From Dictyostelium discoideum (taxonomy: Eukaryota), in assembly GCA_000004695.1 (NCBI GenBank), contig CM000153.2, positions 2,560,001 through 2,624,000 on the forward strand: a stretch of 64,000 nucleotides of DNA, read 5' to 3'. The notes under the pieces were generated by a model, which was not told the DNA's origin, ran no database searches, and saw only the letters and a program-made list of their open reading frames with translations. Below are positions 3,537 through 43,690 of the stretch, in pieces. A program made the position numbers and the translations under genes. Positions within the stretch are counted from its first letter, which is position 1, and each line of letters opens with the position of its first letter.

Positions 3537-3610
3537 GCCTTAGTAGCTCAGTTGGTACGAGCGTGAGACTGAAGATCTTAAGGTCGCTGGTTCGATCCCG
3601 GCCTGAGGCA
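3537..3610 (+). tRNA. tRNA-Phe (anticodon GAA)
   Basis: The cloverleaf folds cleanly. The acceptor stem GCCTTAG pairs with CTGAGGC, the D-arm is GCTC/GAGC, the anticodon stem is TGAGA/TCTTA with loop CTGAAGA (anticodon GAA), the T-arm is GCTGG-TTCGATC-CCGGC (B box GGTTCGATCC), and the discriminator is A. The A box is TAGCTCAGTTGG. Confidence 0.93.
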
Positions 3611-39093: not shown

Positions 39094-40545
39094 TTAAATA
39101 CTTTTTTCAATTTTAATAGTTTCTTCATTATAAATAACATTATTAAAAGTATCTTTTTGTTTATCAAAACAATTATTTGGACAAGTGTAAATGAAAGCAT
39201 TACTAAATTCTAATTGATTCTTTTTTGGATCTAAAGGATCTCTTAATTTAATTTGAGCTATTAAAGTTGACAAAATTTGAAATTCAAATACTTTAACAGA
39301 ATTACAAATTGAGCAATGTGGTGGTAAATTATTAATTTGGTTGAATGTTAATAATTTTACACCCTCTGCAGTCATTGGTAATGGTTTACCACCATATGAA
39401 TAACGTAAACATTGGTCAGGTGCAAATGAGATCTTTTTAATGAATTTACTAAAAACACGATCTTTTACATATTCATAGGTTTCATCTGACCATTCTGCAC
39501 TTTCATCACCAAATGTATTCTCTATACCTTGATATTTCTTTAAAATACTTTGATTTAAATCTGATTCTTCATTATTATTATTGTTTTTATTTGATGATTT
39601 TTTATCTTTTTTTGTATAAATTGATTCTTCATCAATGAATAAAGTACATGATTGAAATTTATTACTTTTATCATCTGGAATAATTACACCTGATATTATT
39701 TCTTCCTCATTAATACAATCATCTTCTATATTTATTTTATTATTATTTTTTTTTTGTTGTTCTTCTTCTTTAATTCTTTTCTTTTCTTCTTTAATTGCAT
39801 CATCACGAATTTTTAATAATTGATCAATTGAATTTGTAACTGATGCTGTAGTAGTAGTAGTAGTTGTTGTTGTTGATGAAATTCCCCAATCATCAGAATC
39901 TTCAACACCCCAATCATCAAGTGGTTTTTCAATTACATTTTGTTGATGTAACTCTTGTACTTTATCCTCAATTTGTTCATTTTGTAAATCTTCTTCCTCT
40001 TCTTTTAATGGATCTAAACATTTAATTACTCTCCAACTAAATTAACAAAATAATTATGTTAGTTTTTAAAATTTATATAATTGATAATTTCCAAAAAAAA
40101 AAAAAATAATAATAATAATTTGAAAAATTCTTTACCCAGAAGATAATGGATTGCATTCATTACTTGGACAAACAAAAACGTAGAAATTTCTTTCATAATC
40201 TGGAAGTGAATTTAATGGACAATATGCTTGTAATAAAAATGATAAATTTGAACTACACATATTACATTTTAAATCTTTTAAATGATTTGGTGGTTGAGCA
40301 CACCATATCTATTGTTTTTAAAATAAGAAAATAAATAAAATAAAAATAAAAAAATGAAAATAAAAAAGTTAGTATTAATTATTTTAATTTTTTAAAAAAA
40401 AATATTTAAAACTCACAGGTGATCCACCAATTTTTGTTGAATAAGGGTAATCATCCTCTTCTTCCTCTTCTTTATTTATTTTTAAACTATCAATTGGTTC
40501 ATCAATAAATCCTAAGAATGTTTTTGTATCATTTTTAATTGACAT
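39094..40545 (-). CDS. PDCD2/PDCD2L-family protein (PDCD2_C domain), 3 exons: ~40545-40420, ~40311-40140, ~40040-39094
   Basis: The N-terminus is MSIKNDTKTFLGFIDEP...YPYSTKIGGSP with a GTGAGT donor. The middle exon is IWCAQPPNHLKDLKCNMC...YERNFYVFVCPSNEC. The C-terminal exon contains DDWG and PPHCSICNSVKVFEFQILSTLI...FIYTCPNNC, matching the PDCD2_C signature C..CG....FEFQ.MP...F.C..C. ORF table 39094..39375 is its 3' end. No MYND finger was seen. Confidence 0.7.
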
Positions 40546-40816: not shown

Positions 40817-41445
40817 TTAATAATTGGTTAAACAGGGAGTGTGGGGTAGTTTTATCTGTCTATTGAAAGACTCTAATCTTTCTTTAAATATTGCAATCTC
40901 TCTATCAATTTCTTCTTGTAAAACTGGGTCAATTTCATCATCATCACCATCACCATCACCATCATCACCCTCTTCATCTTTTATATTTAAATTATAATCA
41001 TCTATATTAATTATATTGTTCCTATTAAAATGATTATTTTCATTATTTTGATTATTTATTATGATTTCTTCTTTAATAATAATAATAGTTTTCTTTTCTT
41101 TTTCTTTTTCATTTTCATTTTTATTTTTCAGTTTATTTTTTGATTTAGAATTTATTTTATTATTATCAAAGTGGTTTGAATTAATGTTTTTAGTATTGTT
41201 TGATTTTGATTTCTTTGATTTCTTGGATTTTTTTTCATCCTCTCCAATAAATTCCAAAATTTCATCTAATGATTTATTTTCAAATTTTAATTTTGCAACC
41301 ATTCTTTCATGTCGCGCTACTGCCTCTTCCAATTCAGATCTTGAACCTCTTTTTAATGACATTATTGCCATTTCAAAATTTTCATCTCTTGGTTCTGTTA
41401 TTTGTAAATTTGAAAATGTCTGTCTCAATTCCTCTGCACTCTTCT
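40817..41445 (-). CDS. Divergent SKP1-family protein, exon 2 (…QKSAEELRQTFSNLQITEP… then a long charged/low-complexity C-terminal extension)
   Basis: A tatttag acceptor at ~41446-41447. KSAEELRQTF aligns with Skp1 KTPEEIRKTF. It is in frame with ORF-table 40817..41428. Confidence 0.55.
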
Positions 41446-41554
41446 CTAAATATATTTATATATATTATCATGTTAATTTTAAATAATAATCTTTTTTTTT
41501 TATTTTTTTATTTTTTTTTTTTATTTTTATTTTCAAAAAAAAAAAAATACAAAC

Positions 41555-42140
41555 GTGAAATTTGAGTAGCAATTTCTTTACTTGTTAAACTAACTAACGA
41601 TTTGATATCTAAGAAATAAGAAGCTGAAGCTAATTCACAAAGATTTAATGGTTTTTTTTGAATGAAATTAAAATCGAATTGAGTTGCTAAAATTGGTGAT
41701 GTATTTGTTGAATGAAATTTACAAAATTCTAAAATCGAATTTAATACACAACCTCTAATATCTGAAAAATAAATTTTAATCTCTTCTTCTGTATTCTTAT
41801 TGATTGATGCTAATAATTTGTCCTCCCTTTTATGAAATATAGATTCACCATCAACTGTAAACCATCCACCTAAACTATTTTTAAATTTTAAACAACCTTT
41901 AACAATATTTTTCACTGTTTTACACATATTAATTATTAATTCGGTTTCCAATTCATATTCTTGATTATCACTTGATAAAATTATAACTCTTTTTGAATTT
42001 TTCATTTTTGGAATTATTAATTCATTTTGTGTTTCAATTGATTGTGGTGATGATGATGATGATGGTGATGGTGATGATGGTGGTAGTGGTAGTGGTAGTG
42101 GTTCTTTTATTTCCATTGAATTTGGTAGTTGTTGTTCCAT
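41555..42140 (-). CDS. Divergent SKP1-family protein, exon 1 (Pro/Ser-rich N-extension plus the Skp1 BTB/POZ-like and dimerisation regions)
   Basis: ORF table 41508..42140. VIILSSDNQEYELETELIINMCKTVKNIV aligns with Skp1 [34 protein letters not shown] aligns with VLDYCRHH. LCELASASYFLDIKSLVSLTSKEIATQIS aligns with [35 protein letters not shown] donor follows CAC at ~41553-41554. Confidence 0.6.
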
Positions 42141-43274: not shown

Positions 43275-43544
43275 TTAACATTAGAAAAAGATTTACATAT
43301 GCATCCAAAACATTGTGGACCAAATTTATTTACAATTGCAACACAACAACTTTATAGTGAAGTAGAAGGTACATGTACAGGTAGATATGGTTTTATCATT
43401 ACAATTACATCGGTTGATTTCTTATCTAAAGGAAAGGTATTAGAATCATCAGGTTATGTAGTTTTCAATGTTAAATATAAAGCAATCATTTTCAAACCGT
43501 TTAAAGGTGAGGTTTTAGATGCAATCGTTACAAAAGTAACAAAT
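43275..43544 (+). CDS. rpb7: Rpb7, exon 2
   Basis: An aaatag acceptor at 43269-43274. [22 protein letters not shown]...VKYKAIIFKPFKGEVLDAIVTKVTN is a near-colinear match to RPB7 ([23 protein letters not shown]...[25 protein letters not shown]). A GTATGT donor lies at 43545. ORF table 43299..43553. Confidence 0.88.
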
Positions 43545-43690
43545 GTATGTTAGTTACAATCATCATTTACAAAAAGAATGAGTAGTGAATCTATCTCTTT
43601 CTCTCTCTCTCTCTCACTCGCCCTCTTTCTTTTACAATCATATTATAATGATTGGTACTAAATAATATATTTTTTATTTTTAAATTATAG

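Follow-up and report, generated by a model that had tools for sequence, protein, structure and literature searches.

A Skp1-like protein of Dictyostelium discoideum with a conserved C-terminal tail is best filed with the type II (ASK20/21-like) Skp1 class

Skp1 is usually seen as a single invariant adaptor, and Dictyostelium discoideum serves as the chief model of its oxygen-dependent glycosylation. A stretch of 64,000 nucleotides from this organism (contig CM000153.2, positions 2,560,001 to 2,624,000 of the forward strand; termed the window, in whose coordinates positions are given) contains the gene DDB_G0284889, which encodes a much longer Skp1-like protein. Is this protein a peculiarity of Dictyostelium or the member of a separate class, and does it still serve F-box proteins? 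On the basis of its sequence, it is best placed in an ancient and widespread type II (ASK20/21-like) Skp1 class, as its Dictyostelium member and an insertion-bearing variant, and it probably acts as an alternative adaptor for F-box proteins. Rather than a new kind of system, the class is an old one that has received little study and is here shown to be widespread among eukaryotes.

The window is AT-rich, and the gene is read on the minus strand. Enumeration of open reading frames (ORFs) and splice combinations identified two minus-strand ORFs of 210 codons (42140..41508) and 203 codons (41428..40817), which are bridged by one GT..AG intron. Among the frame-preserving combinations, the splice 41554..41446 was chosen because it keeps the sequence of Skp1 helix 7. 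The exact span of the coding sequence (CDS), including the stop codon at 40817-40819, is thus 40817..42140, precisely the interval given in the original prediction, which was made from the letters of the window. The spliced product comprises 404 amino acids and is identical (100%, full length) to D. discoideum AX4 DDB_G0284889, which is labelled 'hypothetical protein' at NCBI and carries a UniRef name taken from its Skp1 domain.

The original prediction had described a divergent SKP1 paralog with N- and C-terminal extensions, and this description was borne out by Pfam, phmmer, AlphaFold2 and Foldseek. The Pfam score was 24.5 bits for Skp1_POZ (PF03931; cut-off 21.9) and 22.4 bits for Skp1 (PF01466; cut-off 22.3), the latter match covering only positions 1-27 of the 48 profile positions. 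Orthologs scored far better, for example 50.9 and 33.6 bits, respectively, for P0009. A phmmer search of all PDB chain sequences matched human SKP1 over residues 125-208 with an E value of 6.7e-8. In an AlphaFold2 model computed from 14 family sequences, the predicted local distance difference test score (pLDDT) exceeded 90 across residues 50-206, and the best 50 Foldseek matches listed from the PDB all came from entries containing Skp1 (best E 1.5e-7; target TM-scores 0.58-0.83). Identity to human SKP1 amounts to 21/62 over helices 4-7 compared to 7/32 at the N-terminus. The strings cited in the prediction, namely LDIK, EELRQTF, GGWFTVDGESIFHKREDKLLASINKNTEEE, KRGSRSELEEAVARHERMVAKLKFENKSLDEILEFIGEDEKK and an acidic run, are all found in the protein. 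The stretch matched to Skp1 is not of low complexity, and orthologs are present in every dictyostelid group examined. The similarity of residues ~48-206 to Skp1 is therefore genuine, and the concern that low-complexity sequence had caused it can be dropped.

Helix 7 is followed by a tail of 198 residues, which is mostly disordered and contains two conserved blocks. The first consists of FENKSLDEILEFIGEDE followed by KKSKKSKKSK. Its motif 1 has the consensus (D/N)(R/K)S(L/V)DE(I/L)LEFIG before the lysine run; it reads DDNRS(V/L)DELLEFIGE in Amoebozoa and Holozoa and DERSVDDLLSFING in plants, followed by a lysine-rich run in each case. The second block, at residues 355-389, consists of an acidic run and DEIDPVLQEEIDREIAIFKERLESF. 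The consensus of this motif 2 is DPxLQEEID(R/K)E(I/V)xxF(K/R)xRL; positions P369, D376, E378, F382 and L386 are invariant in the family alignment (A1), and the motif is collinear with plant DPALKEKIDREVEDFARRLNS. A motif census gave the fixed order core, motif 1, lysine run, acidic run, motif 2, and the tail motifs are conserved as strongly as the core. A charged C-terminal extension of more than 200 residues had been announced; the extension is real, but it is slightly shorter (~198 residues) and is not merely charged, as it forms a conserved module with homology to plant tails.

This homology was assessed by comparing tails alone. After removal of the Skp1 core, an alignment of tails from the insertion-bearing form of Amoebozoa (14 sequences) was matched by hhalign to one of tails from plants and streptophytes (8 sequences) at 98.9% probability (E 3.1e-17, 157 columns), and the basic stretch, motif 1 and motif 2 were collinear. 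Judged by this profile comparison, the Dictyostelium tail is homologous to the tail of plant type II SKP1 proteins such as SKP1-like 20/21. The protein thus represents an old and widespread second Skp1 class and no Dictyostelium oddity; its initial treatment as a peculiarity of this genus did not hold, since the tail module is shared with plant ASK20/ASK21 and many protists. According to the definition cited in PMC5426791, type II SKP1 proteins consist of Skp1 plus an extra C-terminal region and are represented in Arabidopsis by ASK20 and ASK21. They are usually dropped from plant phylogenies as too divergent (PMC6463862), and the literature search found no paper that extends the class beyond plants.

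The distribution of the family was determined by an exhaustive profile search of 1.84 billion representatives, which gave 3360 matches at E values up to 1e-3 and 69 at E values up to 1e-30. Many proteins of 300-750 residues match from the C-terminal half of Skp1 through the tail. Orthologs of the same architecture occur in Acytostelium, Cavenderia, Heterostelium, Tieghemostelium, Synstelium and D. citrinum, and also in many environmental transcripts. Further amoebozoan matches come from Filamoeba, Cochliopodium, Balamuthia, Nematostelium, Protostelium, Soliformovum, Cavostelium, Phalansterium, Thecamoeba, Rhizamoeba and Planoprotostelium. Among unicellular relatives of animals, Syssomonas, Choanoeca and Didymoeca were matched; judging from identifier prefixes, Creolimax (P0037, CFRG) and Corallochytrium (Clim) also belong to the relatives. 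Plant proteins named 'SKP1-like protein 21' were matched through the tail (Andrographis, E 8.9e-39, and Citrus; among them P0062, which has this E value, and P0077), as were the streptophyte alga Spirogloea and, from other lineages, Picozoa, Paulinella and Pterocystis. The family thus spans Amoebozoa, unicellular Holozoa, plants, Picozoa, Rhizaria and centrohelids, and this wide distribution suggests an old function. Two forms can be distinguished: an insertion-bearing one with the signature FxNxLGG ... (L/H)K(K/R)E(G/D)(R/K), which occurs in Amoebozoa and Holozoa, and an insertion-free one, which occurs in plants, some Amoebozoa and other lineages.

A neighbour-joining tree was built from the core, a distance method applied to a short alignment of 91 columns. 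In 98.5% of 200 bootstraps it set canonical Skp1 apart from every long form, and in just 56.5% it recovered the insertion-bearing group. The helix-5 Phe of canonical Skp1 is a Cys in all long forms (LCEL versus LFEL). One apparent long form of known structure was rejected: 'SKP1-like protein 20', chain B of PDB entry 8if6 (a D53-D3-D14 strigolactone-signalling entry), has 175 residues, aligns end-to-end with canonical Skp1A and lacks the long tail.

The coordinates of the features are compiled in the following table.

Table. Features of DDB_G0284889 in window coordinates
Feature	Position	Strand	Basis
Coding exon 1: residues 1-195 and base 1 of codon 196	41555..42140	-	ORF/splice enumeration; spliced product equals DDB_G0284889
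Single intron, 109 nucleotides, GTTTGT...TTTAG, phase 1, between helix 6 and helix 7	41446..41554	-	Splice enumeration; spliced at the same position in the ortholog L001 (100 nucleotides there)
Coding exon 2: residues 196-404 and stop	40817..41445	-	ORF/splice enumeration
Pro/Ser-rich N-terminal segment, residues 1-47	42000..42140	-	pLDDT <50 over most of it; unalignable between species
Skp1-like core, residues 48-206: BTB/POZ-like half and helices 4-7	41414..41999 (intron included)	-	Pfam, PDB phmmer, AlphaFold2, Foldseek
Family-specific insertion, residues 83-119, CLKFKNSLGGWFTVDGESIFHKREDKLLASINKNTEE	41784..41894	-	Alignment A1, AlphaFold2
Helices 5-7, residues 164-206, equivalent of the Skp1 'subsite-1' F-box site	41414..41651 (intron included)	-	phmmer, alignment
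Codon of Pro214, aligned with Pro143 of D. discoideum Skp1A (hydroxylated and glycosylated residue)	41390..41392	-	Alignment
Tail motif 1 and lysine run, residues 250-276, FENKSLDEILEFIGEDEKKSKKSKKSK	41204..41284	-	Conserved in Amoebozoa, Holozoa and plants
Acidic run and tail motif 2, residues 355-393, GDDGDGDGDDDEIDPVLQEEIDREIAIFKERLESFNRQI, predicted amphipathic helix	40853..40969	-	Alignment A1, AlphaFold2, collinearity with plants

The predicted Pro/Ser-rich N-terminal extension exists (47 residues), but it is not conserved between species; residues 1-47 are predicted to be disordered, evolve fast and lie outside the conserved family. Of the large insertions that had been proposed, a conserved one is real, with an extent of ~83-119, because the subsequent IKIYFSDIRG aligns with the canonical β3-strand and the start of helix 3. 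It is located in the BTB half, the least conserved part of the core, where it takes the place of a short acidic loop of canonical Skp1. Four extra β-strands are predicted for it (residues 85-87, 93-97, 100-103 and 108-116; pLDDT >90), and positions F86, N88, L90, G91, G92, F94, K104, E106, A111 and N116 are invariant in alignment A1. Amoebozoa and unicellular Holozoa possess these 37 residues, which plant type II proteins and canonical Skp1 lack.

Compared to canonical Skp1 (Skp1A/B, that is FpaA/FpaB, and human SKP1), the protein shares the BTB/POZ-like fold, helices 4-7 and the motifs LDIK and EE(I/L)R.TF, and canonical proteins are its best sequence and structure matches; in D. discoideum, a Pro also lies at the offset of Pro143. 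It differs by its length of 404 instead of 162-163 residues, by the added motif-bearing tail, by the β insertion, by the missing helix 8, and by the residues at the dimer and cullin surfaces considered below. With the plant type II proteins (ASK20/ASK21, 'SKP1-like protein 21') it has in common a Skp1_POZ and Skp1 core followed by an extra C-terminal region, whose elements are arranged in the order basic stretch, (D/E)RSVD(D/E)LLSFI, lysine run, acidic run, DPxxKExxDREVEDFxRRL (plant wording). Both possess the LCEL signature in helix 5 and both lack the conserved Trp of helix 8. In contrast to the plant proteins, the Dictyostelium protein contains the β insertion in its BTB half and has a Tyr-Phe instead of an Asp-Ser pair in helix 5; plants retain a canonical remnant after helix 7 (LPDDLTEEEKLEP), which is missing here, and overall core identity is only ~30%. 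A further difference concerns gene structure: plant type II genes are characterized by more than one intron (Kong et al.; PMC6650978), whereas DDB_G0284889 has one of 109 nucleotides, although a criterion framed for plants carries little weight in an intron-poor genome. The insertion-free long Skp1-like proteins of Filamoeba, Cochliopodium, Balamuthia and Nematostelium share the tail architecture and an LCELASAAY signature; unlike DDB_G0284889 they lack the β insertion and are nearer to canonical Skp1 after helix 7 (TFNILYDFSPGDD).

Which of the known Skp1 surfaces are retained? Residues were read from an alignment of family members with canonical Skp1 (A2). Its reference sequences were checked against PDB chains, which confirmed all residues of human SKP1 (163/163) and residues 2-125 of D. 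discoideum Skp1A; residues 126-162 of the latter are what we take its sequence to be. The comparison of F-box- and Cul1-binding residues proposed in the original prediction gave the following: helices 5-7 are kept, the Asn-Tyr pair important for cullin has become Tyr-Phe, and helix 8 is gone. Residues 164-206, which form helices 5-7, align without gaps to residues 96-140 of human SKP1 and are the best-conserved stretch in comparison with canonical Skp1, with the type II signature LCELASASYFLDIK replacing the canonical stretch. In canonical Skp1 this subsite-1 suffices for F-box binding, and helix 8 (subsite-2) is dispensable and gives the complex a longer half-life (PMC12101541). In DDB_G0284889, helix 8 is missing after helix 7 (EELRQTF), where the Pfam Skp1 match ends at profile position 27/48, and alignment A2 contains no counterpart of the canonical helix-8 sequence (E/K)EN(Q/E)W with its conserved Trp. 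The main homodimer residues of D. discoideum Skp1A are Phe97, Leu101 and Ile123 (PMC12101541). Two of these three are substituted (Cys168, Ser172), and the canonical homodimer is therefore probably weakened.

The reading preferred here, with a probability of roughly 0.6, is that DDB_G0284889 is an alternative F-box-binding adaptor with a tail module of its own, operating in parallel to canonical Skp1A/B. It would bind the F-box domains of at least some F-box proteins via helices 5-7. In place of helix 8, it carries a conserved module in which a short helix motif (S-L/V-D-E-L-L-x-F-I) is followed by runs of lysine and of acidic residues and then by an amphipathic helix (DPx5-ID(R/K)EVExF(K/R)xRL). 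This module may position F-box complexes, given the run of lysines resembling a nuclear localisation signal, or may dock a further partner, and the β insertion of Amoebozoa and Holozoa in the BTB half may modify the surface for cullin or for dimer formation or take its place. Findings on the plant homologs are consistent with F-box binding. ASK20 and ASK21 were found, along with CUL1 and ASK1, to be co-purified with the F-box protein FBW2 (PMC9035678). Bimolecular fluorescence complementation of ASK20A/B gave signals with four F-box proteins (PMC3499479), and a two-hybrid signal was obtained with HWS (bioRxiv 10.1101/123703).

Several observations weigh against such an adaptor. No binding of ASK21 to the F-box protein VirF was seen in the two-hybrid system (PMC4653730), and few F-box proteins were bound by ASK20A/B in two-hybrid assays (PMC3499479). 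Both Pfam Skp1 domain scores barely exceed their gathering cut-offs. Compared to Skp1A, helix 5 is changed at Phe97 (Cys168), Leu101 (Ser172), Asn104 (Tyr175) and Tyr105 (Phe176); with this altered surface, F-box binding could be modified or lost. For the tail, Pfam scans of eight family members at E values up to 1 revealed no family spanning it, and its motif profile matched no solved structure among the PDB sequences. The confidence of its C-terminal helix is intrinsic, as deduced from folding the tail alone, so that it speaks neither for nor against docking on the core and indicates no docking site. What is said of the function of the tail is pure inference. Finally, the literature search for DDB_G0284889 found no paper that names the gene.

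The data on that helix are as follows. In the full-length model, residues 369-393 reached block-mean pLDDT values of 87-93; when the last 50 residues were folded alone at equal alignment depth, the same helix was predicted with values of 88-96. The lysine run looks like a possible nuclear localisation signal. With its sequence SLDEILEFI, motif 1 might superficially recall the first F-box helix, LPxEILxxI, a speculation; a Pfam F-box match was not obtained in the protein at E values up to 10, and the local pLDDT of motif 1 is ~60 or lower. For the alignment A3, motif 1 and motif 2 of 22 proteins were concatenated. A motif-only search of an index of 5.8 billion proteins returned just fragments of at most 92 residues and missed known full-length members, and is thus uninformative on carriers other than Skp1. 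A resemblance to apolipoprotein A-IV (motif profile versus PDB, E 0.01) was dismissed as meaningless, being a weak likeness of amphipathic helices. As a separate observation, residues 311-323 of the tail (41060..41100, minus strand; TIIIIKEEIIINN) look like tandem hydrophobic cores of the SUMO-interaction type; the run lies inside low-complexity sequence and is conserved in the closest relatives only.

Among the alternatives, the one that survives best, albeit unlikely, is that of a decoy or sequestering factor, which would bind F-box proteins via helices 5-7 without engaging cullin-1 and would keep them out of SCF (Skp1-cullin-F-box) ligases or spare them auto-ubiquitination. The original prediction had suggested a decoy or a specialised adaptor, an idea that the present data neither establish nor rule out. 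ASK20A/B reportedly bind F-box proteins and not CUL1, a finding attributed to Ogura et al. in 2008. The pair Asn108/Tyr109 of human Skp1 corresponds to Tyr175/Phe176 here; Tyr175 is invariant in the family, and the pair is Asp-Ser in plant SKP1-like 21 and Tyr-His in insertion-free Amoebozoa. Exchange of the human pair to Lys/Lys abolishes Cul1 binding, as cited in bioRxiv 10.1101/2023.05.13.540652. The weak conservation of the BTB half (7/32 identical to human) and its predicted structured insertion of 37 residues also agree with a loss of the cullin contact. On the other hand, yeast Skp1 with Asn139, the equivalent of human Asn108, replaced by Tyr has intact SCF function and releases only RAVE (PMC11648922), so that a Tyr at this position alone does not exclude cullin binding. 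Moreover, an FBW2 immunoprecipitate yielded ASK20/21 as well as CUL1 (PMC9035678), which does not by itself place them in the same complex, and a pure decoy would have no need for a conserved tail module.

Less probable still is a structural subunit outside SCF, which would employ the Skp1 fold in another complex without binding F-box proteins and whose tail motifs would be the real interaction sites. Precedents exist, as canonical Skp1 occurs in RAVE, in CBF3 and in the synaptonemal complex of C. elegans. The loss of helix 8 and its conserved Trp, the replacement of Phe97 and Leu101 of the dimer/F-box surface by Cys and Ser in every long form, and the strong conservation of the tail motifs, equal to that of the core, would all fit. 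This proposal has difficulty in explaining why helices 5-7 are the stretch best conserved with respect to canonical Skp1, and why the plant homologs associate with F-box proteins in vivo (PMC3499479, PMC9035678).

The preferred reading, an F-box adaptor parallel to Skp1A/B, has consequences for work on D. discoideum. Some of the F-box proteins bound by Skp1A/B could also be partners of a second, conserved Skp1-like protein of the same cell, and such an overlap could confound or extend interactome and genetic results for Skp1A/B. The poorly studied plant proteins ASK20/21 in turn gain a tractable haploid model, and the conserved motifs of their tail are now defined. A more far-reaching scenario is unlikely: the long forms might constitute a second Skp1 lineage dating from the last common ancestor of eukaryotes, in which the groove of helices 5-7 captures F-box proteins and the tail, or the insertion of Amoebozoa and Holozoa, delivers them to a partner other than cullin-1. 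If true, a parallel non-SCF F-box pathway would exist, which was maybe lost in animals and fungi and which in D. discoideum is perhaps regulated by oxygen via Pro214.

How plausible is such a role of Pro214? The original prediction had asked for the equivalent of Pro143, the modified residue of Skp1. A Pro is indeed found at the same offset, +8 from a conserved Phe, in both proteins (TFSNLQITEP in DDB_G0284889; FNIKNDFTP in Skp1A), and it is shared with the two closest relatives (P0002, P0003). It is absent, however, in Cavenderia, Heterostelium, Acytostelium, Tieghemostelium and most other insertion-bearing members (alignment A1). The corresponding region reads HLAGYNQ(Y/F)F in other dictyostelids, QLAGYSQFF in Tieghemostelium and NYEVYAPVF in other Amoebozoa. 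As these proteins have no Pro there, Pro214 is not a family feature, and the pathway of Skp1 prolyl-hydroxylation and glycosylation most likely does not have it as a conserved target. It is very improbable that Pro214 is hydroxylated by PhyA and glycosylated, which would make DDB_G0284889 a second substrate of the oxygen-sensing pathway and place a separate adaptor under oxygen control. That the offset is identical in D. discoideum and both of its closest relatives speaks for this idea, as does a Pro at +8 in the insertion-free proteins of Filamoeba, Cochliopodium and the centrohelid Pterocystis (DFSP or DMIP). Besides the patchy occurrence, the dissimilar flanks (ITEPRDEN versus DFTPEEEE) speak against it, and to our knowledge Skp1 is regarded as the sole substrate of this pathway in Dictyostelium. 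Furthermore, helix 8 of Skp1, which starts at the modified Pro (PMC12101541), has no counterpart here.

Is the gene maintained by selection? Its closest ortholog (L001; assembly GCA_054859355.1, labelled D. discoideum) differs by a rate of synonymous substitution (dS) of 0.11 and has the intron at the identical position. The ratio of non-synonymous to synonymous rates (dN/dS) was calculated for this pair according to Nei and Gojobori from small counts, namely 23.5 synonymous and 26.5 non-synonymous differences in total. It is 0.25 for the whole CDS, 0.12 for the core and 0.11 for residues 211-280, which include motif 1; in the N-terminal segment, which also has a 9-residue indel, it is ~1.2 over few sites. 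These ratios argue that the gene is under purifying selection and is therefore no pseudogene, a fate considered in the original prediction that is also contradicted by the intact frame and the orthologs. The idea that the gene is a decaying duplicate, or is mis-annotated and resembles Skp1 only spuriously, for which the Pfam scores just above the cut-offs and the large low-complexity parts might be quoted, is already refuted by the intact frame encoding a protein identical to the annotated one, by orthologs across Dictyostelia and far beyond, by the core dN/dS of 0.12 and by a confident fold prediction matching SKP1 structures.

One ortholog seemed to deviate. The gene model of D. citrinum (GCA_054859325.1, L002:3001-4662) encodes 329 residues and apparently lacks motif 1. 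A loss was refuted by the genomic DNA, which contains FENKSLDEILEFIGEDGKKSKKPKKSK in frame; the model splices motif 1 out beside an AAT (poly-Asn) repeat of great length, in which the frame is ambiguous. The omission is thus probably an artefact of the gene model or the assembly. With respect to L001, the dS value of 0.11 and several protein indels relative to the gene of the window exceed the expectation for a single species, and GCA_054859355.1 may hence be a cryptic or mislabelled lineage.

The surroundings of the gene are kept in related assemblies. Upstream and on the opposite strand, lies a gene for an Rpb7-like RNA polymerase subunit (43299..43553 and onward, plus strand). The Pfam domains SHS2_Rpb7-N and S1 were found in the orthologous loci (L001:1179-2145 and L002:1239-2849), and this neighbourhood is conserved in both assemblies. 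In L001, the Rpb7-like gene likewise lies upstream on the other strand, and a gene for a protein of 417 residues and then a small GTPase gene follow downstream. The next downstream gene of the window on the same strand (40384..40545 and further, minus strand) starts with MSIKNDTKTFLGFIDEPIDSLK...YPYSTKIGGSPV, which presumably resembles the N-terminus of PDCD2/Tsr4-type proteins; its orthologs in L001 and L002 (417-425 residues) have no precomputed Pfam match. The only tRNA detected in the window by ARAGORN is a tRNA-Phe (GAA) at 3537..3610 on the plus strand.

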